Shown here: in pieces, positions 38,807 through 61,504 of the stretch
How positions within the stretch are numbered: the first letter of the stretch is position 1
How the letters are laid out: each line of letters begins with the position of its first letter
Notes under the pieces: generated by a model
The model's database searches: none
What the model saw: the letters and a program-made list of their open reading frames with translations, nothing else
What the model was told of the DNA's origin: nothing
Assembly: GCA_937930175.1 (NCBI GenBank)
Contig: CALGLP010000006.1
Span: 129,749 to 193,748 of the forward strand
Direction of reading: 5' to 3'
DNA length: 64,000 bases
DNA from: an uncultured bacterium
Lineage (GTDB): Bacteria > Omnitrophota > Gorgyraeia > Zapsychrales > Aceulaceae
Made by a program: the position numbers and the translations under genes

Positions 38807-39550
38807 TTATGATCGTAAGGAAAGCATGAGAAAGGATATGGCGGCCATGGCAGCGGTTTCAACTTTTAAAACCTGCGGGCCCAGACTAACGGGTAAAGAG
38901 CCTTTACTGAGAGCAAGATGCATTTCTTCGTCGGTAAAATCCCCTTCTGGGCCAATGAGGATATAGATTCTTTGAGTCTTTCGGAGCTGATTGAGCGAAA
39001 GGCTGGCAAGAGGTTTACGGTTTTGATGGAGCGATCCGATGAGGCTTAGGTCGTCAGCTGTGATCATCGCGAACATGGCGTCCAAAATCATGACAGGATG
39101 AATCTTGGGCAAGAAAGATCGCTGCGATTGCTTGCAGGCATTGATAGCAACTTCTTGATAGCGCTCGTGTTTGTGTTTTAAGTTTTCCGCAGAGCCTGAC
39201 ATTTCCGTGCGGATTGTTTTCAGAGGGATAATTTCGTCAGCGCCAAGTTCGGTGCATTTTTCAATGATGGTTTCAAACTTTGATTTTTTGGGGATCGCGC
39301 AGGCAAGGACCAATGAAGGCTTTAGACGTTGGTGATTTGAAAAGTTTTGGAGGCGAATTTGGGCGCTTTTTTTGGAAATCGCCTGGATGGTCCCCAGGGC
39401 TTCAAGACCTTGGCCGTTAAAGACAATAAGATCGTCATTCTTTTTAAAGCAAAGCACGTGGAAGAGATGGTGAAGTTCATCGTTGTCAAAAATAGAAATA
39501 ATTTTTTGGTTTTGAGTTAGGCTTGGAAAATAAAAACGGTGTAATGTCAC
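38807..39550 (-). CDS. rsmE: 16S rRNA (uracil1498-N3)-methyltransferase
   Basis: 247 aa. RsmE/SPOUT pattern (…LIGPEGDFT.EE…). Confidence 0.8.
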   Translation of the reverse strand: MTLHRFYFPSLTQNQKIISIFDNDELHHLFHVLCFKKNDDLIVFNGQGLEALGTIQAISKKSAQIRLQNFSNHQRLKPSLVLACAIPKKSKFETIIEKCTELGADEIIPLKTIRTEMSGSAENLKHKHERYQEVAINACKQSQRSFLPKIHPVMILDAMFAMITADDLSLIGSLHQNRKPLASLSLNQLRKTQRIYILIGPEGDFTDEEMHLALSKGSLPVSLGPQVLKVETAAMAAISFLMLSLRS

Positions 39551-39572
39551 AGGTAGTCGTTAGCAGTTCTCT

Positions 39573-40217
39573 TTATTTACGAAAAACAGGAGCTGCTGTT
39601 GTTGTTGGTGGCGGCGTTGTTGTTGCTGCTAGTGGATCTTCTCTCCCTTCCGGTGGTTCTTTTGTCTCAGCTGTTGGCGTTGTTGTTGCTGGCGGCGTTG
39701 TTGTTGCTGCTGGTGGATCTTCTCTTCCTTCCGGTGGTTCTTTTGTCTCAGCTGTTGGCGTTGTAGTTGCCGGTGGCGTTGTTGTTGCTACTGGTGGATC
39801 TCTATCATCGATGAAGGTTGCGGTATCTCCCATGTTAATAGCGCTGCAGCCGCTTCCCTGACATCCAATGGATCCGGTTGAGGCAATGGATAGAGTATAG
39901 GCACCAGTGTCTCTGGTCATGAGTGCAAGCTGAGTTGGGTTATTGCTGACTGTGAGATTAAACCCATCAGGAGCTGTAGCGGCAACATCAAGAGATTTAT
40001 CGTCTGGGGCGTATTCATCATTATCAATAAAATATCGTCGTTGGGACATATGAATGTTGCTGAGAGCGGTTTTGGCTGTGCTTGCTTTCTGGTTTTCGAT
40101 CATCTCAGGGAACTTTGGCAAAAGAATTGCCGTAAGAACACCTGTCACAATGGTGACAATTAATATTTCCATGGCGGTAAAAGCTCTAAGATTTTTTAAA
40201 AAGAACGTTTTTTTCAT
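39573..40217 (-). CDS. type IV pilin-like protein with C-terminal Thr/Pro-rich tandem repeats
   Basis: Prepilin-type N-terminal motif (…RA/FTAMEILIVTIVTGVLTAILLP, Glu at +5). Two Cys in the C-terminal half. Then 2.6 copies of a 27-aa repeat ATTTPPATTTPTAETKEPPEGREDPPA. Confidence 0.7.
   Translation of the reverse strand: MKKTFFLKNLRAFTAMEILIVTIVTGVLTAILLPKFPEMIENQKASTAKTALSNIHMSQRRYFIDNDEYAPDDKSLDVAATAPDGFNLTVSNNPTQLALMTRDTGAYTLSIASTGSIGCQGSGCSAINMGDTATFIDDRDPPVATTTPPATTTPTAETKEPPEGREDPPAATTTPPATTTPTAETKEPPEGREDPLAATTTPPPTTTAAPVFRK
39597..39810. repeat. 81-bp tandem repeat (2.6 copies) inside the pilin gene
   Basis: Near-identical 81-bp units beginning at 39610 and 39691, with a diverged third partial unit at 39772. 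Explains the spurious Gly/Val-rich + strand ORF 39523..39861. Confidence 0.85.
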
Positions 40218-40437
40218 ATTAATCCTCTCTTTTGTCTAAGCATACCAACCTACATCTTCCATTTAAAGTATATCACCTAAAAAAAGCGATTGCCAAGAAA
40301 ATTTTAGATCGTGTTGTGGAAACTCGCATTTGATTTTTATGATTGCACGGTGATAATAATGATGAAGATATAAATGTTTCTAATCGTTACAATTTGGGAT
40401 TGTGCAAAAGGTAGCAGTCCCTTGAGAGGTTTTAAAA

Positions 40438-40510
40438 TGGACCGAGGGGGAGTCGAACCCCCGACCTTCTGATTGCGAACCAGACATTCTCCCAGCTGAA
40501 CTATCGGCCC
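40438..40510 (-). tRNA. tRNA-Ala (anticodon CGC)
   Basis: G3:U70 identity pair (GGGCCGA/TCGGTCC), anticodon loop TTCGCAA, discriminator A73, no encoded CCA. Confidence 0.8.
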
Positions 40511-40536: not shown

Positions 40537-41151
40537 TTATATGGTTTGCCCGCCGGTTGAAACGGCAGAGATGGTTGTTTCGGTTGTAAATTCAGAGGCT
40601 ATGCAGGTTGCAGGGTCAACGCAAGCCTCAATAACGATTCGCACTTGGTTCTCTAGGGTTGTGCTGTTGGTTGTGAATCCAACTTTAAAACTTTTAATTC
40701 TTCCTGAGCCAAGCGTGACTGTGTCAGCTGCGGCCATACAGGAACCCTTTGCTGTGCAAAATTCAATGCCTGCATCTTTAAGTTCATAACAAACCCAGGG
40801 GTCGTCAGCATAATTTTGGGGTGTTTCATTTTTGTCTTGAAGGATCGAGAGAGCTGTTCCTCCTCCAGAGATCTCGATCCCGGTGAATGTTGCGTCACTT
40901 CTTGCCAGTTGAATATTACGTGCCATATGCAAGAGTATGGAAGTTGTTTCAACAGAAAGCATGCCACGTGATCCTCTGTTTTTGTACATCATGCGAACGG
41001 CATAGTCCATGGATGCAAGGCTTGCCAAGACAGTCATGGCAATGATTGAGGCAACAATAATTTCGATTAAGGTGATACCTTTGTTGTTTTGAAGTTTGGC
41101 CTGAGGTGAAGAACGAAAGAAGGATGGTTTGATAGAGTAAAAATATTTCAT
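40537..41151 (-). CDS. prepilin-type N-terminal cleavage/methylation domain protein (minor pilin/pseudopilin)
   Basis: …NNKG/ITLIEIIVASIIAMTVLASLA class III signal with Glu+5. Confidence 0.7.
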   Translation of the reverse strand: MKYFYSIKPSFFRSSPQAKLQNNKGITLIEIIVASIIAMTVLASLASMDYAVRMMYKNRGSRGMLSVETTSILLHMARNIQLARSDATFTGIEISGGGTALSILQDKNETPQNYADDPWVCYELKDAGIEFCTAKGSCMAAADTVTLGSGRIKSFKVGFTTNSTTLENQVRIVIEACVDPATCIASEFTTETTISAVSTGGQTI

Positions 41152-41153
41152 GT

Positions 41154-41540
41154 CTAGTCAGTCCATGTTAGGGTAAGTGTAACCTTGCGCGCTCCAGAAA
41201 TTTCTGTGCAGGTGTACGAAATCGAGTTTCCTTCAAAGGTCTCACCGGGCCAAATCTGTTCACTGCCGTTACAAATCAGTTTCCAGCTACCTTCCCATAT
41301 CCGTTGGTCAGTTTTTGCGCGTAAGTCTTCTAAGAGCTCGCGTCCTTTGTTGGCCGCCCGAAGTTTATTATCGGAAACAAGATTGTTTCGTGAACCGAAT
41401 GAAAAAGCAGAAAGAATGCCAAGAAAACCAACGGAGAGAATAATAACGGTGACAATGATTTCAATAAGGGTGTAGGACTTTATGGTTTGAAATCTTTTTA
41501 ATAGCGGCATATTGAGCCGATCGGTTTTCTTAGTTAACAA
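41154..41540 (-). CDS. prepilin-type minor pilin
   Basis: …IKS/YTLIEIIVTVIILSVGFLGIL. Likely true start is Met11 (41510). Confidence 0.65.
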   Translation of the reverse strand: MLTKKTDRLNMPLLKRFQTIKSYTLIEIIVTVIILSVGFLGILSAFSFGSRNNLVSDNKLRAANKGRELLEDLRAKTDQRIWEGSWKLICNGSEQIWPGETFEGNSISYTCTEISGARKVTLTLTWTD

Positions 41541-41889
41541 CAGGAGTTGGGGCAGTTATATCAATGGATAGACTAACTCCCGTTCCGGTGGCATAGCATA
41601 CTTTTGGATCGCAGTTGTAAGCAACCTTATTTGGAATAATTCCTAAATTTAAATTTGTATTAAGTTCATCCACATTTGCCCCTTCAACATAAACTCCGTG
41701 TTCATTAAAATAAATTTTTTGTGCGGTATATAGCAGTTGAAGAGTTGTTGTGGCGTCCTTAATGCGAGTTTGAGTCATGACGTTTTGATAGCTCGGAATG
41801 GCAATGGTTGCAAGAAGGCCTAAAAGAACAACGGTAATAACGCCTTCCATAAGTGTAAAACCATTTTTTGATTTCATTTTTTCTTTCAT
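41530..41889 (-). CDS. type IV pilin / pseudopilin
   Basis: …SKNG/FTLMEGVITVVLLGLLATIAIP. Two Cys near the C-terminus (disulfide loop). Confidence 0.7.
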   Translation of the reverse strand: MKEKMKSKNGFTLMEGVITVVLLGLLATIAIPSYQNVMTQTRIKDATTTLQLLYTAQKIYFNEHGVYVEGANVDELNTNLNLGIIPNKVAYNCDPKVCYATGTGVSLSIDITAPTPVVN

Positions 41890-41969
41890 TCAGTGGTATA
41901 TAATATTTTTTTAATTTGAAAAGGCTCGGAGCTGTTGCTCCGAGCCTTTTATTGTTTATCCTACTCGGC

Positions 41970-42320
41970 TTAGTCTATCCATGTACACGAATATGTTAAA
42001 GTTTTGCACTTAGTCGCATCGCCGGTTGTCGCAGTGCAATCTATACCATTGGCTCCGTTTGCAGCACAGGTAGGCTTACCGCAATTAGAGGCAACATTAA
42101 CAGTAGTAGGAACAAAGGCGTTAGTGAAAGCGCCTTTTAAGGTTGATTGCGCCGCTACTTCTCGGCAAATTGAAGCAAGAGCTGAGTTACCTGCTCCTTC
42201 TCTTGAGCTCTTTAGTGTATCTGCAAATTTGGGAAGTGCGATACTTGCTAGAATACCCAAGATAATAATGACAATAATAATTTCAAGTAGAGTAAAGCCT
42301 GATTTTTGATGAACTCTCAT
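41970..42320 (-). CDS. type IV pilin (PilA/GspG-like, candidate major pilin)
   Basis: MRVHQKSG/FTLLEIIIVIIILGILASIALPKF canonical prepilin leader and alpha1-N. Cys-rich C-terminal region. Confidence 0.75.
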   Translation of the reverse strand: MRVHQKSGFTLLEIIIVIIILGILASIALPKFADTLKSSREGAGNSALASICREVAAQSTLKGAFTNAFVPTTVNVASNCGKPTCAANGANGIDCTATTGDATKCKTLTYSCTWID

Positions 42321-42416
42321 TGTGTTCTCCTTTGTTTTAATAGTTAATACCACATTTCTTAACCTGCTTTAAATATAGCATATGCGTACCTTTCACGCAA
42401 TAAAACATTTATTTTT

Positions 42417-43673
42417 TTAACCACCTCCTCCTGCCGTGGGTGCTCCCAAGGAAGACATATTGAGCATGGGTAAAAACATAGCAACAATAATTGTTCCAAT
42501 GGTGCCACCCATGACAATGAGCATGATCGGCTCGAAGGTGGCTGTAAAGCGTTGCGTGGCGATGGCAAGAACACGTTGATAATACTCTGCGACATGATTG
42601 AGCATTTTGGCGAGCTCTCCTGTTTCCTCCCCTACAGCGATCATTTGGATTGCCATAGAAGGGAAAAAGTTAGTTTTGGCCATTTCCTCTGAGATCATTT
42701 TTCCTTCACTGACGTTTTTTTTAATTTGTTTAACAAGCCCTTCACAAATTTTGCTTCCGATCAGGCGCTCAATGATGTCTAGCGCTTGGATGATTGGAAC
42801 CCCGCTTTCAACAAGGATGGTCATTTGAGAAGCAAATTTTTCCATGATGGCGGTCTTTTGCAGATCACCCAAGACTGGTAATGAAAAGAGCAACTGCTCC
42901 CACTGCACTTTCCCGATAGGCGTTGCGAGATATTTTCTTATCATCATAATGAAAATAATGATTGAGCCAAGAAGAATGAAAAATTTAGATCGGATAAAGC
43001 TAAAAAGATCTAAAAGCCCCTGGGTTAGGCCTGGGAGATTAGACCCCAGGGTGGAATATAACTCTTGGAATCTTGGTCCAATGAAAATAGCAAAGACAAG
43101 AATGGCTCCGACAACAGCAGTCAGAAGAATCGCTGGATAAATGAGCGCGGAAATAATTGCTGATTTTAGGGCTTCGGCTTTTTCTACGTATATGGTAATT
43201 TTATTTAAGACCCTCGGCATGGTACCTGAGGCTTCACCGACTTCGATGAGGCTGGTCCAGAGGGTATCAAACACCTTGGGGTAACGGGAGAGGGCTTTGT
43301 TTAAGCTGATGCCTTGTTCGACATCGTTACGAACGTGCTGAAGTATTTCATAAAATTGTTTACTTTCTGTTTGTTCTACAACGATGGTGAGGCTTCGCAT
43401 CAAGTTGACTCCTGAATCAAGCATGGTGGCGAGTTGGCGAGCCAGCAAAAGTTTGTCCTGCGTCGCAACGCCATTACGGGTGAATTTTCGTGATATTTTT
43501 ATTTTTTGGGATGATCCTTGAGGGTTTATTGACAGGATTCCCTCCGTCACGGCAAGAATGAAATAGCCTTTTTGTTGGAGATCAGCAATTAATGCTTCTT
43601 TGCTGTCAGCTGCGGTTGACGCTTTGATCGTTTTTCCAGAAGAATCTTTGACTGTGTAGGTAAAGTCGGGCAT
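42417..43673 (-). CDS. pilC: type IV pilus assembly platform protein PilC (GspF family)
   Basis: 418 aa. Duplicated T2SSF domains, 3 TM segments. Confidence 0.85.
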   Translation of the reverse strand: MPDFTYTVKDSSGKTIKASTAADSKEALIADLQQKGYFILAVTEGILSINPQGSSQKIKISRKFTRNGVATQDKLLLARQLATMLDSGVNLMRSLTIVVEQTESKQFYEILQHVRNDVEQGISLNKALSRYPKVFDTLWTSLIEVGEASGTMPRVLNKITIYVEKAEALKSAIISALIYPAILLTAVVGAILVFAIFIGPRFQELYSTLGSNLPGLTQGLLDLFSFIRSKFFILLGSIIIFIMMIRKYLATPIGKVQWEQLLFSLPVLGDLQKTAIMEKFASQMTILVESGVPIIQALDIIERLIGSKICEGLVKQIKKNVSEGKMISEEMAKTNFFPSMAIQMIAVGEETGELAKMLNHVAEYYQRVLAIATQRFTATFEPIMLIVMGGTIGTIIVAMFLPMLNMSSLGAPTAGGGG

Positions 43674-43674
43674 A

Positions 43675-45390
43675 TTATAAGAGTGTAATGGCTAAAACTT
43701 CTTCAAGGCTTGTTTGGCCTTCTTTGACTTTTTTAATACCTGTTTCAAATAACGTGCTCATACCGTTTTGACGTGCGGCTTCCTTGATGTCAGTGTATAG
43801 GGCATTTTTAGCAATCATTGATCGGATAGCATCATCCACAAAGAGGACCTCTGCGATGGCAATCCTTCCTTTGTAACCGATGTGATTACATTTTTCACAA
43901 CCCTTGGCGCGATAAATAAGTTCAGATTTTAAATTAAATTTTTCTTTTTGTTCTGCTGAAGGCTCGTAGGCTTCTTTGCAGCTTTGACAGAGTTTTCGCG
44001 CTAAGCGCTGGGCAACGATGATATTTAAGGAAGGTGTTAGTAAGTACGATGGAATGCCGATATCTAAAAGGCGCGTCACCGCGGATGCCGCGTCATTGGT
44101 GTGCATCGTGCTTAAGACAAGATGTCCGGTCAGGGCTGCGCGTAGACAAATCTGAGCGGTTTCAAGGTCGCGCACCTCTCCGACCATGATAATGTCCGGG
44201 TCTTGACGCAAGAAGGCGCGTAGGGCTGCGGCAAAGGTAAAGCCAATGTCGGGCTTGACATGAATTTGATTGATGCCGTCGAGTTTGTATTCAACAGGAT
44301 CTTCGGCCGTCATGATATTTTTCTTGGAATCAATAATTTCGCTTAATGCAGAATAGAGTGTTGTGGATTTGCCGCTTCCCGTTGGGCCTGTGATAAAACA
44401 TAGTCCATAAGCCGCACGGATAGCTGTGCGTATTTGCTCGAGCTGTTTGGTGTCAAAGCCTAGGGTCGCAATATCTAAATTGACAGCACTTTGGTCTAAG
44501 ATGCGCATAACAACTTTTTCACCCCAAATTGTTGGAATTGAAGAAACACGAAGATCGACCATGCGGTCTTCAAGTTTGGCGGCAAGCGAGCCATCTTGCG
44601 GAAGTCTCTTTTCCGCAATGTCAAGCTTGGAAAGGATTTTAATTCTTGAAATAATGGGGAGCAAGAGGTGCCTTGCCGGTGGTGGAATCTCGTAAAGGGC
44701 CCCATCGATACGATAACGCACGGAAATTTTTTCTTTATGGGATTCAATATGAATATCGCTCGCGCGTTGATCAATCGCCTGGCGAATAATCAAATCAACA
44801 ACCTTGATAACTGATGCGTCGCCTGCCCTTTCTGTAAGCTTGTCCACGCTAAGCTCTGTGTCCTCGCGCTGTTTTTGATTAACAAGGAGCTCTTCTTTTT
44901 CTTTAGGTGCCTCATAGGTGCTTTGTGCGGCTCTAGGTGATGATGATTGGCCACCCTTGGCATAGCAATCTTCAATAGCCAGAGCGATATCTTTTTTTGT
45001 TGCTAAGACAAGACTAAGTCCATAACCAGTTATGGTGCGTAAATTATCAATGAGGAGAAGATCGAGGGGATCAAAAATCGCACAAGTTAGCGTGTTGCTA
45101 TTGAGGGACAAGGGCAAGACAAAATTTTTCTGGGCAAAATCTTTTGGGATGAGCTTCAGAAGCTCAGGTTTCTGAGGCTTTAATAGTCCAGAATTGTACG
45201 AAAGATAAGGAATGTTTAGTTGTTTGGCAAGGCAAGCAATAATATCATTTTCTTTGACAAATCCAAGCTGGAGCAGGATTTCACCAATGCGGCCACGTTG
45301 TTTTTTTTGGGCATCAATGGCTTGGTTAAGTTGGGTCTCGGTCAGAGCACCTTGTTGGATAAGAATTTCGCCTAAGCGTAATCGTGTCAT
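43675..45390 (-). CDS. pilB: type IV pilus assembly ATPase PilB (GspE family)
   Basis: 571 aa. N-terminal T2SSE_N domain, Walker A GPTGSGKST, Asp/His boxes, tetracysteine CxxC…CxxC zinc motif. Confidence 0.85.
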   Translation of the reverse strand: MTRLRLGEILIQQGALTETQLNQAIDAQKKQRGRIGEILLQLGFVKENDIIACLAKQLNIPYLSYNSGLLKPQKPELLKLIPKDFAQKNFVLPLSLNSNTLTCAIFDPLDLLLIDNLRTITGYGLSLVLATKKDIALAIEDCYAKGGQSSSPRAAQSTYEAPKEKEELLVNQKQREDTELSVDKLTERAGDASVIKVVDLIIRQAIDQRASDIHIESHKEKISVRYRIDGALYEIPPPARHLLLPIISRIKILSKLDIAEKRLPQDGSLAAKLEDRMVDLRVSSIPTIWGEKVVMRILDQSAVNLDIATLGFDTKQLEQIRTAIRAAYGLCFITGPTGSGKSTTLYSALSEIIDSKKNIMTAEDPVEYKLDGINQIHVKPDIGFTFAAALRAFLRQDPDIIMVGEVRDLETAQICLRAALTGHLVLSTMHTNDAASAVTRLLDIGIPSYLLTPSLNIIVAQRLARKLCQSCKEAYEPSAEQKEKFNLKSELIYRAKGCEKCNHIGYKGRIAIAEVLFVDDAIRSMIAKNALYTDIKEAARQNGMSTLFETGIKKVKEGQTSLEEVLAITLL

Positions 45391-46913
45391 TTATTGATTC
45401 GTTGTTGTTCAGTCAGGAAAAGGGCTTTGTTGATTTCTTTTCTTTTGGCTTCTGAGATGCTTTGCTCGCGAGTTGTCATGCTAGCAGTAAGAGTTTTGGG
45501 CGTTATGTTATTTTGATCATCAATGATTTTAGGGGTAATGAAGATCACAAGTTCACGCTCTTGATGCGCTTTTACTGTGTAGCGAAAAGCTCCTCCAATC
45601 AAAGGAATGTCGCCTAAGAGCGGGACCTTTGTAACGGTATTCGCGTTTGTATTTTTTTTAAGGCCTCCTAAAAAGATTGTTTCATTGTCTTTAACGCGGA
45701 GAATAGTTTTACTCGAGCGTTCTTCAGGGTCTTTGTAGTTTTCGCCGGATCGAGGATCTTTAATTGAACCGATCCGTGCCTCAATCACCTTGGGCACGAT
45801 CGCCATAGTGATTTCTCCTGTCTCGATATTGATTTGGGGAGTGACCGTTAAAAAGATACCTGTTTCTATGCGCTCTGCTTCAACTGTTGAATCTGTAACG
45901 CCGCTTCCGCCCCCCGTTGTTGTTGAGACTGTTCCAATGGCTTCGTTGCTTGATATTTTGATTTCAGCGCTTTGATTATTCAGGGTTAAAATTTTAGGAT
46001 TTGCAAGATTCTTTGTATCGACTTGATTCTTTAAGAATTGCAGCATAACGGTAAGGCCTGAGGCATCAATGGTTCCTGCGGTATATTCAGGATCGAGTTC
46101 AAAGCCTTTAGATAAAATCTTATTTTGATCCCAAGGGTACAGAACAGAACGCTTAGCCCCTGAAAAGCTAAGAGCTGTGCCATATTGGACCCCAAGTTGG
46201 TCAGCGGTAGTTTTAGAAATATCAAGCATTTCAACTTGAATAAGAATTTGAGGTGTAGGGGCATCGAGTTGCGCGATTGTCTTTTCAATAATAGGAAATT
46301 GGCTTGGGATATCCGTGACAATCAAGCTGTTGGTGCGAGGGTCTTCAATCACCTTGCCATTATCAGGCGTCAAAACGCTTTCGAGAACAGCAATCATTCC
46401 ACCTCCTGTGTTGCTATCACCTATTGTGCTTGTCGATTCTGTTTTTGTAGAAGCACTATTGCTGCTTTCGCTTCCAAGGGTTGTCAAGAGTTTTGATGTA
46501 GAAACAGTTGCGTTCTTAAGGGTGTAAACGCGCGTGATGACTTCGACGGTAGGCTTTGTTACTTTTTTTACGGTAAAGATATCGCTTCCGGGCTCGACTT
46601 CGTAGATTAAGCCATTGGCATTCAGGATACGTTCAAGGGCTTCTTCCACGGGGACATTTTCAAAAAAGAGTGTCACCTTCATGCTGGCAATATCCGTGGC
46701 TGCAATAAAATTCATTCCAGATTGCTGAGAAAAGATTTTTAGAACGTTGCGCAAGTCCGCATCTTTAAAATCCATCGAAATTTTTTTGGAGTATTCGGGA
46801 TAGACAAATTTGCTAAAACGAGATATTTCAGCAAAGGAAGAATAATGCGTGATAAGGAGAAAGCTAAAAAGGAAGAAAGTGGTTAGAGCGATAGGTGACA
46901 TCTTTTTTTTCAT
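45387..46913 (-). CDS. pilQ: type IV pilus secretin PilQ
   Basis: 508 aa. Signal peptide, N-domains, C-terminal secretin domain (…VPLLGDIPLIGGAFR…). Confidence 0.8.
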   Translation of the reverse strand: MKKKMSPIALTTFFLFSFLLITHYSSFAEISRFSKFVYPEYSKKISMDFKDADLRNVLKIFSQQSGMNFIAATDIASMKVTLFFENVPVEEALERILNANGLIYEVEPGSDIFTVKKVTKPTVEVITRVYTLKNATVSTSKLLTTLGSESSNSASTKTESTSTIGDSNTGGGMIAVLESVLTPDNGKVIEDPRTNSLIVTDIPSQFPIIEKTIAQLDAPTPQILIQVEMLDISKTTADQLGVQYGTALSFSGAKRSVLYPWDQNKILSKGFELDPEYTAGTIDASGLTVMLQFLKNQVDTKNLANPKILTLNNQSAEIKISSNEAIGTVSTTTGGGSGVTDSTVEAERIETGIFLTVTPQINIETGEITMAIVPKVIEARIGSIKDPRSGENYKDPEERSSKTILRVKDNETIFLGGLKKNTNANTVTKVPLLGDIPLIGGAFRYTVKAHQERELVIFITPKIIDDQNNITPKTLTASMTTREQSISEAKRKEINKALFLTEQQRINK

Positions 46914-46924
46914 GAGAACGTTCC

Positions 46925-47371
46925 TTAAGTCGATTGAGTTATGGTTTGATCAATGCGTATTGTAAAAAGTGTATTTAAACGCATAAGGTCAACACCATCC
47001 TTGTGAATATCAACAACTTTTGAATCCTCGATCATATCACCGATCGATACCACTTGATCATTAATAATCGCCTGAGGTCGATCGCTACTCCAAACAAGTC
47101 CGCTGAGGATCACCTTGGGAGGCTTTACCTCTTTTACGGGTTGAACGATTGTTGGCTGAACATTAGTGTCTTTGCCAGGAACTACTATATTTATTATCTT
47201 ATCTGGTTCTTGTACGATTTCAATCTTTTCTTCAACTTTTGGTAGCCATGTTTCGAAAGGGTTTCTTATGTTTAAGGTTTCTTGTAAATCAAGCAAAAGG
47301 TTTTGCGCATATCCTTGCGATGCTGATGCCAGAAGCAGGATGATGGATACTCGAATAATATTATTCTTCAT
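46925..47371 (-). CDS. PilP-like pilus assembly protein
   Basis: Signal peptide, RNPFE motif, C-terminal beta domain (VILSGLVWSSDRPQAIINDQVVSIGDMI…) typical of PilP. Gene order between pilO and pilQ. Confidence 0.55.
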   Translation of the reverse strand: MKNNIIRVSIILLLASASQGYAQNLLLDLQETLNIRNPFETWLPKVEEKIEIVQEPDKIINIVVPGKDTNVQPTIVQPVKEVKPPKVILSGLVWSSDRPQAIINDQVVSIGDMIEDSKVVDIHKDGVDLMRLNTLFTIRIDQTITQST

Positions 47372-48008
47372 GGTTTAATCTCGTTGAGCTAACGGAAATC
47401 TCCCATCCCATAGCTTCTTCTTCTTGCGCTATTGTTTTATTGCGCGCGTTTCGTTGCGACGCGCTACCAGCGCTATTTTTCCATGTATTGATACGTAAGT
47501 TTTCTTTGTTTTTTTCTAATGCTTGCATGAGTGAAAGCATGTTTGCATAGGTTGACGCGAGGGTAAAATTAATAGTTTGAATTGTGTAGTAGTTTTCTTT
47601 TTGAGAACCTGTAGGGGTATAAAAGATCACATCAACGTTGTGGGTTGCCGCAAGATTAATAATGCCTTTGATGATTTCTGTTTCGGTGGGAAAACCTTGG
47701 GGAGTTACTTTAATCAAGGCATCGAGGCGTTTTTTAGCATCTTCCAGCATGATCGCTGTTTTTTGTTTTTCTTCAAGTGCGGCCATTTCATTTTTCATCG
47801 CAGCCATTTTGTCATTGCTGACTTTCCAATAATAGTGCATACCGAAAAGAGTTGTGAGGACCAGGATGCTATTGATAAAGATATCTTTGCGATGATCAAG
47901 GGTTTCGCGAATAGATTGAACGTTGATTTGGCTCATATCAAAATCAAATTTGATTTTGCTTAAGTCTTCAATTTTTATGTTTTGCAATTTTTTAAGGATA
48001 TTATTCAT
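47361..48008 (-). CDS. PilO-like (PilN/PilO family) inner-membrane pilus alignment protein
   Basis: Single TM (ILVLTTLFGMHYYW), coiled-coil region, periplasmic domain. Start moved to MNNILKK. Confidence 0.55.
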   Translation of the reverse strand: MNNILKKLQNIKIEDLSKIKFDFDMSQINVQSIRETLDHRKDIFINSILVLTTLFGMHYYWKVSNDKMAAMKNEMAALEEKQKTAIMLEDAKKRLDALIKVTPQGFPTETEIIKGIINLAATHNVDVIFYTPTGSQKENYYTIQTINFTLASTYANMLSLMQALEKNKENLRINTWKNSAGSASQRNARNKTIAQEEEAMGWEISVSSTRLNHEE

Positions 48009-49587
48009 TGGTTTCGTCCGTTTCAATGATGATTTCAAAGAATGTAACGGGAAAGCCTCCAAGCGTTTCTTTTTTGACTTGCGTGAGCTCAATTTTTTTA
48101 GAATATTTCTTGAAAAAAGCGTTCGAACGTAATCTTTCTAAGAATTCTTCGATGAGGCTTATTTGGCGATTGAGTTTTTCATCATAAGAGTAGCCTTGGA
48201 GATTCACGTAAACCTTGATTTCACGTCGGCCTGTCTCTTGGGGATTACCATAGCCAATATTGAGATTCGATAGCCAAGCACCATCAAGGAGCGCGTCAGA
48301 AATGTTCTTAAGATAGAGGGTCATATGACTTTCAAGGCGAAGTTTTTTGTAGTCAGTTGTCTTTGCCTCAACATCGACAATCATTTTTTCTAGGTCAGGC
48401 TTTGAGGCGTTTTGATATTTCTGAACAAATGTTTTAAATTCAGAAAACTTCTTTTCTAAAGGAAGCGCTTGTGAGCGTGTGATACCGTATAGCCCCCCTC
48501 CTAGACTTAAGCAAATCCAAGCCACGATAATTGTTGTTTTGTAGTTAGGTGTTTGTGTAAGAAAACTTTTTGTTCCTGAGTCAGAGACTTTAGAATGCTT
48601 TAGCTTTCGTGATTTTGCTAAATCGAGATTGAAGCTTGAGGGTGTCGTGTCTGTTAAGCTAATGCCAATGGCGTTGGCCATGTTGGAATGAAGTTCATTT
48701 TCATATCGAAAAAGATTGTTGAGGTTAAGCGATGTTGCTGCAATGCCGAGCTCATCGTTAATTCCTTGCGAAGTTTCCTTAGCGTTTTGATCAGTAAAAA
48801 GATAGATGTGTGTTACTTGACTGCTGGGATTCGCTGCTTTTGGTTGACGATTATAAAATTCAATGGAATTACGGATTTCGCTAGCAAGATTTGCAACGAT
48901 AGATCGAAAATCTTGCTCTGAGCCATCGCTGTTGGCTGTCAGTAGATTAAAGTTGCGGATCAGATGAGGAATTTGCTGGTTCACCACCATGATGGATCCT
49001 TGGCCCTCGATGATTTGAACAATGGCGATTGTTTGGGTGGCATTGGAAAGTTTTTTGACGTGAAGAATCCTTAAAAGACTTAAGATCGAGGGTTCAACCG
49101 ATAGGATTTCAGCGTTGGCGTCTTCAATAATTTTACAATACTGATCGAGCTTGTCTTGGCGTATGGCAAGAAAAAGGATCTGGTTTTTTTTTATATCTTT
49201 TTCCATAAAAGGGATTGCGTGAAAAGCATAAAATAGCTCATCGAGCTTAAAGGGCATGTATCGTGGGGCTTCAAAGGCAATCGCGTTTTCGGTTTCCAAA
49301 GGACTCATGAAGGGTATTGTAAAAGAGCGGAAAATAATATCGCGGACAGGAATTGAGAGTCGCATCTTAGGCTTATCTATATTTCGATCCTTGATTAGCC
49401 TTAGAATTGCTGCGGTTAAATGCACGTCTTCGGAGATAGCCATACCTTCAGCAGAAAGCGGTGGATTGAGATTGTCTGGGATTTGTCGCGGAATGGCTGC
49501 AGAGAAAATAAGTTGATCGCGCTGCATTTCTGCAACGGATAAGAATTCTGATCCCCAGAAAATACCAATTTGTTTCTTGGAGGCCAT
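48001..49587 (-). CDS. PilM-PilN fusion protein (actin-like ATPase-fold PilM domain + TM/periplasmic PilN-like C-terminus)
   Basis: About 529 aa. N-terminal ~350 aa with PilM/FtsA-like pattern, internal TM (TTIIVAWICLSLGGGLYGI), then a coiled-coil/periplasmic tail. Start at MASKKQ, coupled to the upstream small ORF. Confidence 0.6.
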   Translation of the reverse strand: MASKKQIGIFWGSEFLSVAEMQRDQLIFSAAIPRQIPDNLNPPLSAEGMAISEDVHLTAAILRLIKDRNIDKPKMRLSIPVRDIIFRSFTIPFMSPLETENAIAFEAPRYMPFKLDELFYAFHAIPFMEKDIKKNQILFLAIRQDKLDQYCKIIEDANAEILSVEPSILSLLRILHVKKLSNATQTIAIVQIIEGQGSIMVVNQQIPHLIRNFNLLTANSDGSEQDFRSIVANLASEIRNSIEFYNRQPKAANPSSQVTHIYLFTDQNAKETSQGINDELGIAATSLNLNNLFRYENELHSNMANAIGISLTDTTPSSFNLDLAKSRKLKHSKVSDSGTKSFLTQTPNYKTTIIVAWICLSLGGGLYGITRSQALPLEKKFSEFKTFVQKYQNASKPDLEKMIVDVEAKTTDYKKLRLESHMTLYLKNISDALLDGAWLSNLNIGYGNPQETGRREIKVYVNLQGYSYDEKLNRQISLIEEFLERLRSNAFFKKYSKKIELTQVKKETLGGFPVTFFEIIIETDETNE

Positions 49588-49589
49588 GA

Positions 49590-49766
49590 TTATTGCACTT
49601 TCCTTGATTGAGAGCGCAACCACTTATCTATTTCTTTGCGATCAAAACGCCAGACGCCGCCGATTTTGATCCCTGCGATCTTGCGTTGATTAAGCCAGTT
49701 GTAGATCGTCTGCTTTTTCAGCTTAAGATATGCAGCAAGCTCATCAACATCTAATAAGTGATCCAT
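49590..49766 (-). CDS. small excisionase-family HTH (HTH_17) protein, first gene of the pilus operon
   Basis: Not in the ORF track (58 aa): MDHLLDVDELAAYLKLKKQTIYNWLNQRKIAGIKIGGVWRFDRKEIDKWLRSQSRKVQ. Its TAA stop overlaps the pilMN ATG (ATAATCATGG). Same G.WRF.R..ID.W motif as the two HTH proteins at 12.4-13.2 kb. Confidence 0.6.
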   Translation of the reverse strand: MDHLLDVDELAAYLKLKKQTIYNWLNQRKIAGIKIGGVWRFDRKEIDKWLRSQSRKVQ

Positions 49767-50053: not shown

Positions 50054-52270
50054 TTGATAAGATTAAGTATGGTCATTGTAGGATTCCTTAAGAAGCATTT
50101 CTTTACTATCCTGGTTCTGTTTGCAGGGTTTATTAATCTACCGTTTTTCCTTAATAAAACTCCGATTTATCATGATACCCTTGCGCACTACATTGCGTTT
50201 TACAACACCTACAACTCTTTTTTCTTTCACGCGGAATTGCCTCGCTGGCTTCCCTATACAAGCTTTGGAGTCTCAAGCGATTTCTTCATCTTTCTGCCAA
50301 CTGATTATTTCTTTATGCTTGTTGGTAGCCTTCTAAAAATAATAAATGTTTTATTTTTATATAAGGCATCTTTCTTTGCAACCCAACTCATCTATCTTCT
50401 AGGAACCTATACTCTTGCAAGAGACATTTTTAAGAGTCGTTTTTCAATTTGGCTTGTTTGTCTATGTGCAGCAGGGAGCCTCATGCTAAGAGATCAGATT
50501 GGCTGGGGATTTTCCTATTTTTACTTGCTACCATGGATGCTTTTTTACTTTCGAAAACTGATTATTGATAAGAATCCTTTTCCTTTCTTCTTTTTATCGG
50601 TCATTTCGCTTCTTGGCTGTCTTCCTTATTTTACTGTTATCGTCTTTTTCCAATTTTTTGTTTTTTTTATTCTATTGTGGATCGTCAATCGGCGACAAAT
50701 TTTCTGCGGCTATAAAGCTCCCTGCAAATCTTCTGTTTTAATTAATATAATTAAGTGTCTTGGTCTCTTTGCTTTTGTCTTTGCATATTTTTATATTTTG
50801 TTCCATTCAAAAGATTTAATACAAATTCTTTCCGTAGGTCGAGATCCAGAATCTTTCGGAGTTTCCTTACAGACATTCTTGAGCTATGGTGGTCATATTG
50901 GTCTTAAGAAATTTATTTTTTTCATTACTCCTATTCATTTGGCAACTTCCTTTTCTGATCTGCATATTTATTTAGGATTAACACTTTGGATTTGCGTTGT
51001 TTATGGAATTTTTCGTAGCAAAGAACCACTATTCGCTGTTTTCTTTGTCCTTGCAGCGGTTGTTTTTCTTTTCTCGTTAGGGAGTTATTTTAGTGTCTTT
51101 TGTTATTATTTTATGCCAGGGATGAAGCTCTTTCGTCATATTGGCTTAACCGCAAATCTTTTGCGTTTTTATGTTCCCATCCTTGCAGGCTTCGGCTTGC
51201 AGGCCTTGCTCAATGATATCGCCAAGCAGAAAGATAATAATCAATCCTATCTTTTTCTATTTTTTGGCGTTTTTATGGTCGCCTTTAGCTTTTTAGTTGT
51301 CTGCCCTGGAGAAAGCTTGTTGTGGGCCGTTGCTTATCCCTGCTTGATCCTTGCGATCGTTTTATTCGCATTCTTTTTTGCGCAATTAAGAAAGACCAAA
51401 TCACCGCATTTGGGCGTTCTTCTTGTTTTATTTTGTGTTCTTGAATTGGTGGTTGCCCAATTCTTGATCGCAGAGCGTGTTCATAAGAATGCGCCTGCGC
51501 AGCCTAAATCGTTAAGCTATGTTTCTAGAAATCTTTATCAGTCCTCACGAAGCTCTAAGCCACCTTCAATCAGGGCAAAAGAACTTAAGGACTATCTTTC
51601 ATTTTTCCATCATCGTTGGGGTTGTGGCATCTATGCCTATTATTACGACTTTCTGCAGTGGGATCCGTGTGATTGCGACCTGCGTTTAGATTTTATGAAC
51701 AAATATGTCTATGATTTCTTAAAAATAACAGGAAATAAGCCGACTTTGCAAGGGTTTACCCTACCTGAGAGCTCCTTTGTCCGCAACGCTGTCGGATGCC
51801 AAACACCAAAGATTCAGCTTATTTCAAAAGTTATTTTTAGCAATGATCCGAAGACAACTCTCAAGGCTATAAAAACAAAGGACGCGATTGTTGTCGCCGG
51901 CGCATCTACTAAGCTTCAAAATACTTGGAAAAACCATGCGAAGTCTGAAGGATACATCGTTGTAAATGATTTTTCATCAAATCGGTTAAAGTTGACCGCT
52001 TTTGTTCCTGAAAGGCAGGGCGCATGGCTGTATTATAAGGACGGGTACCATCCGGATTGGACGGCCAAGATCAACAATCAACGATCAGTTGTTTATCAAG
52101 CAAACATCGCCTTTAAGGCCATTAAGCTCCCGTATGGGCTAAATAGTGTTGAATTGTCTTTTGATAATCGGAAAATGGCGTTATGTTTTTATGTGTTAAT
52201 TTTGGGAGGATTGTTGTTCACGGTGTTCATGCTAGTGAAAATATTTTCAGAGATCTTGTACCCTAATTAA
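50054..52270 (+). CDS. large polytopic membrane protein, GT-C-fold glycosyltransferase-like (GtrC/YfhO/TfpW-like)
   Basis: 738 aa. About 480 aa with at least 12 predicted TM helices, then a roughly 230-aa soluble C-terminal domain. Divergent from the pilus operon, convergent (10 bp) with the sugar operon. TTG start in the track; ATG at 50069 also possible. Confidence 0.45.
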   Translation: MIRLSMVIVGFLKKHFFTILVLFAGFINLPFFLNKTPIYHDTLAHYIAFYNTYNSFFFHAELPRWLPYTSFGVSSDFFIFLPTDYFFMLVGSLLKIINVLFLYKASFFATQLIYLLGTYTLARDIFKSRFSIWLVCLCAAGSLMLRDQIGWGFSYFYLLPWMLFYFRKLIIDKNPFPFFFLSVISLLGCLPYFTVIVFFQFFVFFILLWIVNRRQIFCGYKAPCKSSVLINIIKCLGLFAFVFAYFYILFHSKDLIQILSVGRDPESFGVSLQTFLSYGGHIGLKKFIFFITPIHLATSFSDLHIYLGLTLWICVVYGIFRSKEPLFAVFFVLAAVVFLFSLGSYFSVFCYYFMPGMKLFRHIGLTANLLRFYVPILAGFGLQALLNDIAKQKDNNQSYLFLFFGVFMVAFSFLVVCPGESLLWAVAYPCLILAIVLFAFFFAQLRKTKSPHLGVLLVLFCVLELVVAQFLIAERVHKNAPAQPKSLSYVSRNLYQSSRSSKPPSIRAKELKDYLSFFHHRWGCGIYAYYYDFLQWDPCDCDLRLDFMNKYVYDFLKITGNKPTLQGFTLPESSFVRNAVGCQTPKIQLISKVIFSNDPKTTLKAIKTKDAIVVAGASTKLQNTWKNHAKSEGYIVVNDFSSNRLKLTAFVPERQGAWLYYKDGYHPDWTAKINNQRSVVYQANIAFKAIKLPYGLNSVELSFDNRKMALCFYVLILGGLLFTVFMLVKIFSEILYPN

Positions 52271-52280
52271 GGGATGTTCT

Positions 52281-52979
52281 TTAGCCAAAGATTTTAACTT
52301 TTAGGATCGCCCATAAAGCAGGAATAACAGTATCTACGGCTTTTATGGTTTTTCCTTGTTGATGCGTCCTGGGTGTATAAGAAACGGCTTCTTCGGCAAT
52401 CTTGTATCCCGCCCGACAAAGTTTGCTCACCAATTCAACGGCAGCCGCGTGTCCATTAGAATTAAATCTTGTTGCCTTTAAAATTTTTGTTTTAATCAGA
52501 CTAGATCCTATCACATCTGTAAAATTTCGCCCATAGAATAAATTAATCAACGATGTTGCAATAATGGTTCCAAGCCAATATGGCCTTTCTTTAATTAATG
52601 TAAATATTGGAACATTTTTCCGGTCTAAAAGTCTTGAGCCAAAAACAACATCTAAGCTCTCGCGTTCCATTTTTTCCATCATTTTCTGGACATCTCTCAT
52701 GCTATACTCAAGGTCTGCGCCAAGTCCAGAGAAATACTCCCCTTTAGCCAATTCCATTCCTTCACGGCCCGAATACCCAACTCCCATATTTTTTGAGTGA
52801 AGAATTATCCTGAGGTCCTTGTCATTTTTTAATCCCTGGAGCAATTCTCTGGTGCCATCTGTTGAGCAATTGTCAATAATAATGATCTCTTTATCAATGT
52901 TGACGGCTTTAGCCTCCTCGATGGCTTTAAGAATCGTTGTTTTCTCATTGAAACACGCGATAACCATGGTAAGCTTCAT
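52281..52979 (-). CDS. family 2 glycosyltransferase, polyprenol-phosphate sugar synthase-like (GtrB/Dpm1 catalytic domain)
   Basis: MKLTMVIACFNEKTTI…IIIDNCSTDGT… GT-A motifs. Start moved to Met29 (ATGA overlap with the rfbH stop). Confidence 0.65.
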   Translation of the reverse strand: MKLTMVIACFNEKTTILKAIEEAKAVNIDKEIIIIDNCSTDGTRELLQGLKNDKDLRIILHSKNMGVGYSGREGMELAKGEYFSGLGADLEYSMRDVQKMMEKMERESLDVVFGSRLLDRKNVPIFTLIKERPYWLGTIIATSLINLFYGRNFTDVIGSSLIKTKILKATRFNSNGHAAAVELVSKLCRAGYKIAEEAVSYTPRTHQQGKTIKAVDTVIPALWAILKVKIFG

Positions 52980-54292: not shown

Positions 54293-54332
54293 TAATTCTC
54301 GCTATTTAGATCGCAGACATGCAGCCCACACC

Positions 54333-55982: not shown

Positions 55983-56001
55983 TAATCGTTCCTATATTTT
56001 T

Positions 56002-58067: not shown

Positions 58068-58088
58068 AGATCGCCTTTCTAGAATTTT

Positions 58089-61463: not shown

Positions 61464-61504
61464 GAGTAACTTTCTTAACCCATTTTAAGGAAATACCGAA
61501 TAGA

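Follow-up and report, generated by a model that had tools for sequence, protein, structure and literature searches.

The 64-kb window, that is, the whole stretch of DNA that was analysed, encodes a pilus-like locus on its minus strand, in which one gene specifies a prepilin with a repetitive C-terminal tail (the tailed pilin; table 1). The last ~75 residues of this prepilin consist of two full copies and one partial copy of a 27-residue Thr/Pro/Glu unit. Genes for PilB/GspE, PilC/GspF, a secretin, and a PilM-like protein were found 2–9 kb upstream on the same strand, and this synteny was kept in relatives. The NCBIfam ATPase models scored 613 bits (PilB) and 593 bits (GspE), both below cutoff, and did not separate a type IVa pilus (T4aP) from a type II secretion system (T2SS). 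No prepilin peptidase (PilD, Peptidase_A24) was detected among the annotated ORFs of the window. As the initial annotation had stated, the tailed pilin stands apart from the other four pilins, behind a tRNA-Ala and ahead of rsmE, which begins 22 bp past the pilin stop codon. A terminator-like site was not found on the minus strand in the pilin-rsmE gap, and no non-coding RNA other than tRNAs was detected. The TGnTATACTT element upstream of the gene was invariant across six orthologous loci, a near-identical promoter element (TGCTATACTA) was observed at locus L022, and the orthologs have AAGGAGG at the Shine-Dalgarno position; a scan for sigma-54 promoters upstream of the tailed pilin gave zero matches.

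Table 1. Features at the tailed pilin locus (positions within the window)
Feature	Position	Strand	Evidence
rsmE, 16S rRNA methyltransferase	38807..39550	-	Pfam Methyltrans_RNA (1.1e-43) and PUA_4
Tailed prepilin gene, 214 aa (stop codon 39573-39575)	39573..40217	-	ORF list
C-terminal tail, aa 131-214 (84 residues), predicted disordered	39576..39827	-	AF2, composition
Partial repeat copy c, ~39 bp, PLAATTTPPPTTT, then unique end AAPVFRK	39597..39635	-	Tandem Repeats Finder and register alignment
Repeat copy b, 81 bp, PPAATTTPPATTTPTAETKEPPEGRED	39636..39716	-	Register alignment
Repeat copy a, 81 bp, PPVATTTPPATTTPTAETKEPPEGRED	39717..39797	-	Tandem Repeats Finder and register alignment
Predicted pilin module, aa 13-130: alpha-1 helix, four-stranded sheet, Cys119-Cys124 mini-loop	39828..40181	-	AF2, Foldseek, PDB profile search
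Class III signal (leader) peptide MKKTFFLKNLRA, aa 1-12	40182..40217	-	Sequence reading and homolog alignment
Shine-Dalgarno GAGAGGA, 5 nt before ATG	40223..40229	-	Sequence reading
Promoter-like TTGGCA-18-TATACT with TG extended -10	40267..40296	-	Consensus scan, 10/12 matches
tRNA-Ala(CGC), between the tailed pilin and the four upstream pilin genes	40438..40510	-	ARAGORN, Rfam
Four upstream pilin genes (204, 128, 119, and 127 aa)	40537..42353	-	ORF list, Pfam
Filament machinery, whole span	42417..49623	-	Pfam, NCBIfam
PilC/GspF	42417-43673	-	Pfam, NCBIfam
PilB/GspE with MshE-type N-domain	43675-45390	-	Pfam, NCBIfam
Secretin	45387-46913	-	Pfam, NCBIfam
PilM-like protein (two ORFs without assignment before it)	48001-49623	-	Pfam, NCBIfam

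Class III signals combine a short leader of basic character, Gly or, rarely, Ala at -1, Phe or Met at +1, Glu at +5, and a hydrophobic stretch of about 20 residues. By inspection and homology, such a signal was recognized in the tailed prepilin (MKKTFFLKNLRA/FTAMEILIVTIVTGVLTAILLP), with cleavage predicted before Phe13 (MKKTFFLKNLRA/FTAMEILIVTIV). The junction of leader and mature protein, MKKTFFLKNLRA/FTAME, has Ala at -1, not the canonical Gly; both residues occur at this position among the aligned homologs, which have F, Y, or W at +1 and E at +5. The prepilin assignment made earlier was borne out by the ORF translation, from which Phe+1, Glu+5, and exactly two cysteines (C119 and C124, each kept in at least 90% of the homologs) could be read. 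The Pfam N_methyl model (12 bits against a cutoff of 21.2) and TIGR02532 (9.9 against 16.3 bits) both scored below their cutoffs; thus, the signal motif was assigned by inspection and homology rather than by curated thresholds. The AF2 model reached a pLDDT >90 over residues 11-130, with a helix at 15-66 and four strands at 86-121, and the best Foldseek matches of this model were the type IV pilins 1AY2, 6XXD, and 8TJ2 with an E value of only 4e-3. A profile search against the PDB retrieved PilA of M. xanthus (1.4e-17), as well as a Geobacter pilin, PilA4 of T. thermophilus, and GspG. In addition, an exhaustive HMMER search yielded 4646 homologs at E<1e-3, all aligned to residues ~1-130 only. 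The alpha-1N segment was atypical (FTAMEILIVTIVTG), being divergent and Thr-rich. Taken together, the homologs, the predicted fold, and the machinery context indicate a type IV pilin-like protein, with the pilin fold being that of a predicted model and not of a solved structure.

The tail contains 24 Thr, 19 Pro, 12 Ala, and 8 Glu in its 84 residues, with a net charge of -7 and no Cys. The initial annotation had described Thr/Pro-rich 27-residue repeats encoded by an 81-bp DNA unit and had asked whether they form an extension; Tandem Repeats Finder confirmed the array (39598-39801, period 81 bp, 2.5 copies, 94% matches, score 359), the copies could be aligned in register, and AF2 predicted the tail as an unstructured extension (pLDDT 52-70, without secondary structure). 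An 18-bp sub-repeat (6 aa, ATTTPx) is nested within the array. A Pfam search of the tail gave zero family matches. When 5.8 billion proteins were searched by a word-indexed method with the whole protein, only the query was returned and no tail homolog, as low-complexity candidates swamped the list; with the pilin domain alone, the same search again returned only the query itself, and the family surfaced solely in the exhaustive HMMER scan. Copies a and b differ at 5 of 81 nucleotides, with a longest identical run of 38 nt, and four of these differences are synonymous and one is non-synonymous (pN/pS 0.10, P=0.024), which suggests that the peptide has been conserved and that the duplication is not very recent. 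This divergence of 6%, mostly synonymous, also argues against a fast-turnover array. The tail thus appears, from the pattern of substitution, to be translated and constrained. Independent assemblies (ENA ERZ724082, ENA ERZ724083, and NCBI GCA_036722365.1) contain the same sequence, and the identical protein was found in both NCBI and ENA assemblies; the tailed gene is therefore no assembly artefact. An antisense ORF at 39523-39861 on the plus strand was rejected as a gene, being a by-product of the codon composition of the repeat. We also dropped a possible common aromatic-basic C-terminal motif (PVFRK, WFFR, YPIR, and YPLQK in several tails), which was weak and inconsistent.

The surroundings of the tailed pilin were well conserved among related genomes. 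At least six related lineages share the order of pilin genes, tRNA-Ala(CGC), TGnTATACTT, tailed-pilin ortholog, and rsmE-recA-recX, with alaS after recX wherever the contig extends that far. Positional orthologs beside rsmE-recA-recX were observed at loci L004, L006, L010, L012, and L015-L021; the tRNA-Ala lies at the equivalent site in L004 and L006, and L010 and L022 contain its 3' end. This arrangement of tRNA-Ala, tailed pilin, and rsmE is ancestral and conserved, not the result of an insertion. As a side observation, RecA and AlaS are 80% and 64% identical, respectively, to those of a Ca. Omnitrophica MAG that carries a homolog.

The C-termini of the orthologs all differ from one another, comprising low-complexity tails, Cys-rich modules, or helical modules, and the tails could not be aligned. 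Among 152 sequences (the 150 best family representatives of the HMMER search and two extra sequences from cluster look-ups), 47 have tails longer than 30 residues, which usually open with a P/T/S/E/D/G-rich stretch. The ortholog modules comprise 150-250 residues; in the AF2 model of P0011, a four-helix module with a pLDDT of ~90 comes after a disordered linker, and others are Cys-rich. A folded second module of this kind was not detected in the tailed pilin, of which the cargo is linker-like sequence only. In another lineage, P0004 independently keeps a module-less T/S/E/P tail (EPTPEPEPKPEP) that is like the rod of TonB, which is built of Glu-Pro and Lys-Pro. The closest homolog, P0002 (53% identity; contig coverage 1.1x), appears to be tail-less, which suggests that the tail is not obligatory. 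The family stems from uncultured Omnitrophota, and related pilins occur in Elusimicrobiota, with much larger Cys-rich cargos. Because each ortholog bears a different appendage, the gene behaves like a "carrier" pilin whose cargo is hypervariable. We regard it, with moderate confidence, as probable that the tailed pilin is an accessory type IV pilus-like subunit composed of a conserved pilin module and a lineage-specific disordered appendage.

A rival account, built on the initial annotation, takes the tail as a heavily O-glycosylated acceptor on a pilus tip or adhesin subunit, with the 81-bp repeat driving phase or antigenic variation through its copy number. Among the alternatives this account survived best, and we consider it possible but doubtful. 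The phase variation it invoked was not borne out: the 81-bp unit (27 codons) is intragenic and a multiple of three, so the reading frame is kept when the copy number changes and on/off switching of the tailed pilin is impossible. The repeat neither shifts the frame nor alters promoter spacing in the manner of a contingency locus, and any change in copy number would alter the length of the tail rather than switch its expression. In addition, the window contains no silent cassettes, of either pilin or tail, that could feed gene conversion, and no inverted repeats flanking the gene, invertible promoter, or repeats in the promoter region were detected. Four assemblies of this population, derived from at least two ENA analyses (ERZ724082 and ERZ724083) and with one differing by a SNP elsewhere, have an identical 2.5-copy array and an intact frame over 252 nt of repetitive sequence; they represent essentially one strain, and this constancy is thus a weak test. 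Scans for other strains gave zero matches, both in genomes (with the pilin alignment and PilC) and in metagenomes (with the alignment and with a pattern for TTTPTAETKEPPEGRED that allowed for codon degeneracy). The divergence of the copies and their signature of purifying selection also stand against rapid variation. In favor of this account, tail alleles of 200, 206, and 247 residues were observed among strains of a sister species, indicating that length variation occurs among related tailed pilins. The tail of this species is a hot spot of polymorphism, with a 123-bp in-frame indel and with six of nine SNPs in 6.6 kb within 35 bp of its 3' end, and this counts in favor of the accessory subunit with a variable appendage; strain-level hypervariability was also found in the C-terminal half of the first pilin of this species.

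As for glycosylation, the abundance of Thr and Pro in disordered residues makes O-glycosylation of the tail plausible on compositional grounds, and bacterial O-glycosylation systems modify flexible low-complexity regions and pilins (PMC3643930; 10.1101/2020.04.19.049825). A trio of GtrA, polyprenyl-P GT2, and YfhO-like GT-C genes together with a sugar-biosynthesis cluster adjoins the pilus operon. However, no oligosaccharyltransferase gene lies next to the tailed pilin, which has rsmE downstream and the tRNA-Ala upstream, whereas tfpO and tfpW directly follow pilA, and the annotated ORFs of the window include neither a Wzy_C nor a PglL-type protein. The only GT-C enzyme in the window is the YfhO-like protein (50054-52270), encoded 10 kb from the tailed pilin; similarity of this enzyme to the TfpW, TfpO, and PglL families was not detected, and its homolog P0155 belongs to an LPS/heptose cluster that has no pilus genes. 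The trio was rejected as specific evidence of a dedicated pilin glycosylation system, given the context of P0155 and the general glycan cluster around the trio (RfbH, NeuB, radical-SAM enzymes, and methyltransferases). Linkage of transferase and pilin is not obligatory, as illustrated by pglL of Neisseria (PMC3643930), and the lack of an adjacent transferase therefore weakens the glycosylation claim without refuting it. Overall, the variation and glycosylation mechanisms first proposed for this gene are weakly supported.

A second explanation, which we consider unlikely, is that the tailed pilin is the major structural pilin and that the filament is a "bottle-brush" coated with 84-residue disordered tails. 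The surface-exposed pilin C-terminus known from T4P structures could accommodate such tails, Glu+5 is present, and the best sequence matches (M. xanthus PilA, T. thermophilus PilA4, and GspG) are major pilins. A conserved extended -10 promoter of its own and a strong Shine-Dalgarno sequence precede the gene, and in L015-L021 the ortholog is monocistronic and has a terminator of its own; the promoter, the Shine-Dalgarno sequence, and the terminator in L015 would fit a major subunit with high expression just as well. However, the 127-residue pilin encoded first after pilC (41970-42353) has a canonical N-terminus (GFTLLEIIIVIIILGILASIALPKF) and is followed by a terminator hairpin (41919-41950), and for these two reasons it is likely the major pilin. 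Moreover, it would be difficult to fit ortholog modules of the size found here onto each subunit of a filament, and the alpha-1N segment of the tailed pilin is divergent, with the homolog P0009 having Asp at +5. The style of the N-terminal sequence and the hairpin, the two features considered for this point, suggest that the tailed pilin is probably a minor rather than a major subunit.

It is also conceivable, and in our judgment very unlikely, that the tail is a functionless linker left over after loss of a C-terminal module, which has since drifted or been expanded by replication slippage. The orthologs do have linker and module where the tailed pilin has linker-like sequence only, and the closest homolog is seemingly tail-less; nevertheless, the predominance of synonymous differences between copies and the frame that is intact in all assemblies are at odds with drift, a module remnant was not found downstream within the 22 bp before rsmE, and P0004 has retained a module-less tail independently. 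Least likely of all is a T2SS with the tailed protein as a pseudopilin, in which the Pro-rich tail would act as a spacer similar to TonB and, instead of being displayed at the surface, might stay in the periplasm throughout: the GspG, GspE, GspF, and GspD models come close in score to the pilus models, five consecutive pilin genes resemble the order GspG-K, and the P0004 tail resembles the TonB rod, but the locus encodes a PilM-like protein in place of GspL/M/C, PilB was the top-scoring ATPase model, such loci of Omnitrophota have been classed as T4aP (PMC10066038), and the sister-species hypervariability in the tail and the first pilin fits external exposure better.

In the favored reading, the tailed pilin would serve a type IV pilus-like filament as an accessory subunit, probably of low abundance and possibly at the tip, in a bacterium that probably belongs to the Omnitrophota. 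A prepilin peptidase encoded outside the window would process the prepilin, and the N-terminal 130 residues would insert the protein into the filament, so that the tailed pilin would be incorporated into pili. In relatives, the appendage comprises a linker rich in Pro, Thr, and Glu and, after it, a predicted folded module that is helical or Cys-rich; here linker-like sequence alone is present, as an acidic, Thr/Pro-rich, predicted disordered stalk that was probably lengthened by tandem duplication of the 81-bp unit. Such a tail would project outward as a mucin-like spacer or brush, extended and hydrophilic and up to ~25 nm long, would alter the surface properties or the adhesion targets of the filament, and might be O-glycosylated on its 24 Thr.

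[quoted passage not shown] A conserved pilin of which the only fast-changing part is a presumably exposed C-terminal appendage is thus a candidate determinant of specificity or immune evasion. Extending this, we propose as a speculation, improbable in its full form, that the rsmE-adjacent pilin is a T4P display scaffold of Omnitrophota (and Elusimicrobiota) for fast-diversifying cargos that set partner, host, or prey specificity or permit phage evasion, with a glycosylated mucin-like Thr/Pro brush as a new type of cargo here. The Thr/Pro-repeat version would be an unusual pilin with a mucin-like tail only, and would offer a natural test case for tail glycosylation in the phylum; taken alone, the tailed pilin gene fits unremarkably into the modular-pilin theme, without evidence of switching.

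Repeat-variable surface proteins include the in-frame arrays of the streptococcal alpha-C/Rib proteins and the octapeptide repeats of PilQ in N. meningitidis. The tailed pilin resembles these in having an in-frame tandem DNA repeat in a gene for a surface structure and indels in the tail of the sister species; unlike them and unlike contingency loci, it has only 2.5 copies with 94% identity, shows no polymorphism among four assemblies of one strain, and allows no on/off switching. The Pro/Thr-rich ("PT") linkers of secreted enzymes and mucin-like surface repeats are often O-glycosylated and often tandemly repeated. Like these, the tail is ~50% Thr and Pro with acidic residues, and would be expected to be extended and resistant to proteases and collapse; however, PT linkers join two folded domains, whereas the tail ends the protein and is attached to a filament subunit.

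[quoted passage not shown] The tailed protein is likewise a type IV pilin, with predicted exposed Ser/Thr acceptors, and C-terminal or near-C-terminal glycosylation is known in these systems. TfpW, a GT-C enzyme, acts together with a GtrA-like partner, and the window likewise encodes a GT-C enzyme and GtrA. In contrast to Pseudomonas, in which the transferase gene is immediately downstream of pilA, the tailed pilin is followed by rsmE, and the known glycosylation sites are single residues or loops of folded domains rather than an 84-residue repeat tail.

The closest parallel is provided by the modular type IV pilins defined by Raynaud et al. 2021, which include PilB and PilC of S. sanguinis, CofB of ETEC, and TcpB of V. 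cholerae (PMC8179133). In common with these, an N-terminal pilin module is joined to a C-terminal appendage by a flexible linker, the appendage varies by lineage on a conserved carrier, and the orthologs of the tailed pilin carry predicted folded C-terminal modules (AF2 of P0011). The tailed pilin differs in that its appendage is a wholly disordered Thr/Pro repeat without a folded second module or Pfam domain, in its fixed position beside rsmE with its own promoter, and in that its adhesion function is putative. Thus, we concluded that the tailed pilin belongs to the modular-pilin theme and is novel in carrying a disordered Thr/Pro-repeat appendage alone.

The tailed pilin opens with a class III signal-peptide-like N-terminus (MKKTFFLKNLRA/FTAMEILIVTIVTGVLTAILLPKF) with Phe+1, Glu+5 and, at position -1, Ala rather than Gly; it carries two cysteines (C119 and C124), and over its last ~75 residues a 27-aa unit, PP[V/A]ATTTPPATTTPTAETKEPPEGRED, recurs as two complete copies and a partial third. 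Tandem Repeats Finder reported the underlying array with an 81-bp period (2.5 copies, 94% matches, score 359) and a nested 18-bp sub-repeat; the full copies differed at 5 of 81 positions, with a longest identical run of 38 nt. Thus, the prepilin with Thr/Pro repeats described in the initial annotation was borne out by the ORF and the repeat analysis, and its location behind a tRNA-Ala, apart from four other pilins and next to rsmE, was borne out by the window annotation; rsmE starts 22 bp past the stop codon. The array was the same in the window and in all matching ENA/NCBI metagenome assemblies, and the repeat-bearing ORF was confirmed as real and not an assembly artefact. GCA_036722365.1 and ERZ724083 showed 100% identity to the window over 10.9 kb and 2.9 kb, respectively. 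ERZ724082 NODE_352 differed by one base over 6.6 kb, at 39875 (C/T, C in the window), which produces G115R at a glycine invariant in close-homolog alignments; the difference may be a genuine polymorphism or an error due to low coverage (6.9x).

Positions of the features considered, and gene neighbors of the orthologous loci
Feature	Position	Strand	Description
PilZ-domain protein	24-410	-	stand-alone
PilZ-domain protein	20651-21115	+	stand-alone
Tailed pilin gene	39573-40217	-	ORF, 214 aa
81-bp repeat array	39598-39801		within tailed pilin gene
Promoter-like site	40267-40296	-	between tRNA-Ala and tailed pilin
tRNA-Ala(CGC)	40438-40510		four pilin genes upstream
Hairpin	41919-41950		directly 3' of first pilin gene
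PilB/GspE	43675-45390	-
YfhO-like GT-C	50054-52270	+	738 aa, divergent from pilM operon
Periplasmic glycosylation set	50054-54779		three components
Glycan biosynthesis cluster	54849-63460
L004 (P0004)			secretin, PilB, intervening 23S_rRNA_IVP-family ORF, PilC, four pilins, tRNA-Ala(CGC), tailed pilin, rsmE, recA, recX, alaS, his genes
L006 (P0003)			pilins upstream, tRNA-Ala(CGC)
L010 (P0006)			contig begins at tRNA 3' end
L012 (P0011)			pilins upstream
L015-L021 (P0012, P0159)			PilC and six upstream pilins in most
First-pilin SNP hot spot	L015:382-541		C-terminal half of first (presumed major) pilin
Tail-coding region	L015:3400-3621
Tail indel site	L015:3561

Word-indexed protein searches with the tailed pilin returned no match besides the query protein, and curated models grazed it with marginal matches only: Pfam N_methyl scored 12 bits (cutoff 21.2 bits), Pfam ComP_DUS gave E=7e-4, and NCBIfam PilA_Myxo and GspG matched the N-terminal ~90 residues. 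An exhaustive HMMER scan covering 1.84 billion representatives recovered 4646 homologs at E<1e-3, of which 68 reached E<1e-10, and in every homolog the match covered residues ~1-130 only. AlphaFold2, supplied with an alignment of 87 sequences, predicted a helix (15-66) and four strands (86-121) with pLDDT >90 over residues 11-130, and a tail (131-214) lacking secondary structure at pLDDT 52-70. Residues 11-130 are thereby confidently predicted to form a pilin fold. The top Foldseek matches of the model were full-length type IV pilins (gonococcal 1AY2, Thermus thermophilus PilA4 6XXD and Myxococcus xanthus PilA 8TJ2), at weak E values of ~4e-3, and a PDB search with the family profile recovered M. 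xanthus PilA (1.4e-17), a Geobacter pilin, PilA4 and GspG.

Positional orthologs were observed immediately 5' of rsmE-recA-recX in L004 (whose pilin P0004 is annotated as from a Candidatus Omnitrophica MAG), L006, L010, L012 and L015-L021, with alaS next after recX wherever the contig was long enough. Identity between the window and these loci was 80-89% for RecA, 64-74% for AlaS and 35-47% for the pilin module. The promoter-like site had equivalents in L004, L006, L010, L012 and L015 and a near-identical variant in L022. In the 100 nt 5' of the start codon, the extended -10 element TGnTATACTT was invariant in six of six orthologous loci, followed in most by a TAGAAG-like box; a -35 box (TTAGCA/TTGGCA) was present in three of the six, and a strong Shine-Dalgarno sequence lay in the same interval. 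The tailed pilin thus has a conserved promoter of its own, and its separation from the other pilins by the tRNA is ancestral. The closest homolog, P0002 (53% identity), is likewise preceded by this tRNA and by an almost identical promoter element (TGCTATACTA); its sequence ends at residue 130, without the second Cys, on a 577-bp contig (L022, ERZ4223250) of unreliable sequence (coverage 1.1x) that has a convergent ORF where rsmE would be.

The C-terminus was unlike in each positional ortholog. P0004 ends in a 40-aa T/S/E/P low-complexity tail (…EPTPEPEPKPEPVKKLPLK), P0003 in a Pro-rich linker and a Cys-rich module, and P0012 in an S/G/P linker and a small Cys-containing module. The tails of P0006, P0009, P0011, P0020 and P0026 combine a low-complexity linker with at least one, and up to several, copies of a ~40-aa helical module without a Pfam family (W[IV]EENP[DE]xW..LL..YP[DE]). 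In the AlphaFold2 model of P0011, a disordered linker of 28 residues joins the pilin module to a compact four-helix unit (pLDDT ~90; residues 160-199), and by this prediction P0011 is a genuine bimodular pilin. Among 152 sequences (the 150 best family representatives of the 4646, plus two from cluster look-ups), 89 had no tail, 16 a tail of 11-30 aa, 7 of 31-100 aa and 40 of >100 aa; most long tails began with a P/T/S/E/D/G-rich stretch. The largest, Cys-rich tails belonged to Elusimicrobiota, whose pilins (P0025, P0031, P0038, P0044, P0052 and others; P0163 is from Ca. Avelusimicrobium aviculae) carry, behind TPEPEP-type linkers, 300-500-aa C-termini with up to ~50 Cys and constitute a large, undescribed group of modular pilins. 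The window protein is the linker-only extreme, with the longest-period near-perfect repeat of the 152-sequence set.

The initial annotation had also proposed copy-number variation of the repeat, as phase or antigenic variation of a pilus tip or adhesin. Phase variation was not upheld: slippage stays in frame because the unit spans 27 codons, and no flanking inverted repeats, silent copies or RNA element were found in the window. Copy number was identical in four assemblies, a weak test as all represent one strain and genome and metagenome scans turned up no other. The full copies had diverged by 6%, with four of five changes synonymous (pN/pS 0.10, P=0.024 under neutrality); the tail is therefore translated and its peptide constrained, without rapid turnover of the array. 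In the sister species carrying P0012, the loci were 99.7-99.9% identical over 6.6 kb and encoded alleles of three lengths (200, 206 and 247 aa). A clean in-frame indel of 123 bp separates the two longer ones, the 247-aa allele containing an internal IEYDMPVAPEP duplication, and of the nine SNPs that distinguish L015 from L020, six lay in a 35-bp stretch at the 3' end of the tail. A second hot spot, in the first pilin, held ~19 mismatches in 160 bp, with the rest of the locus ~99.9% identical, which suggests recombination or diversifying selection on an exposed part. Both clusters fit exposed, diversifying surfaces.

Genes for filament machinery lie upstream on the tailed pilin's strand. They encode PilC/GspF, PilB/GspE (whose N-domain is of the c-di-GMP-binding MshE type) and a secretin, beyond which lie two unknown ORFs and a PilM-like protein. 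NCBIfam scored the ATPase at 613 bits for PilB and 593 bits for GspE, both under cutoff and inseparable between a type IVa pilus and a type II secretion system; we favor the former on the basis of PilM and of Omnitrophota surveys, which point to T4aP for such loci (PMC10066038). The two PilZ-domain proteins, together with the MshE-type N-domain, hint at c-di-GMP control of the pilus. The hairpin behind the first pilin gene (AAAAGGCTCGGAGC-TGTT-GCTCCGAGCCTTTT, perfect stem) is a bidirectional terminator or attenuator and probably governs the major:minor pilin ratio. The tailed pilin could itself be the major pilin, as its own strong promoter, and its own terminator in L015, would suit. We favor a low-abundance, possibly tip-located subunit, because its alpha-1N segment is atypical, because the first pilin after pilC has a canonical major-pilin N-terminus and the 14-bp-stem hairpin, and because the modules on the orthologs are bulky, like those of modular minor pilins (PMC8179133).

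The tail is acceptor-like in composition, with 24 Thr and 19 Pro in 84 disordered residues. A YfhO-like GT-C beside the pilus operon, of a rare family (four homologs found), forms a three-component periplasmic glycosylation set with a polyprenyl-phosphate-type GT2 and GtrA, an RfbH-like dehydrase lying between the components. A dedicated tail glycosylation system was weighed against by four observations: Pseudomonas tfpO and tfpW directly follow pilA, whereas here rsmE is adjacent; no Wzy_C or PglL-like protein was found in the 64-kb window; the set is part of a wider glycan cluster with RfbH, NeuB, radical-SAM enzymes and methyltransferases; and the GT-C homolog P0155 is encoded in an LPS/heptose cluster that has no pilus genes. 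Since transferase linkage is not obligatory, Neisseria pglL being unlinked (PMC3643930), O-glycosylation of the tail is possible but unsupported. The neighboring biosynthesis cluster encodes a C-methyltransferase, two radical-SAM/SPASM enzymes, an FkbM methyltransferase, a HAD hydrolase, a TPP enzyme, NeuB and an epimerase/dehydratase, which suggests an unusual modified sugar, nonulosonic or dideoxy.

We proposed that a prepilin peptidase encoded outside the window would cleave the tailed pilin, and that the pilin module would take it into the filament with its C-terminus pointing outward. Pilin C-termini are exposed in solved type IV pilus structures. The tail would form a stalk or brush that is acidic, hydrophilic and extended, presumably ~25 nm at full length. 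It would modify adhesion or shield the filament, and it may be glycosylated. A conserved rsmE-adjacent carrier pilin with hypervariable cargo appears to be new in Omnitrophota, as does cargo consisting solely of a mucin-like Thr/Pro repeat. The protein resembles glycosylated pilins in its exposed Thr only, and repeat-variable surface proteins in its in-frame repeat only; it would work like the modular pilins, but is without the folded second module that defines that family.
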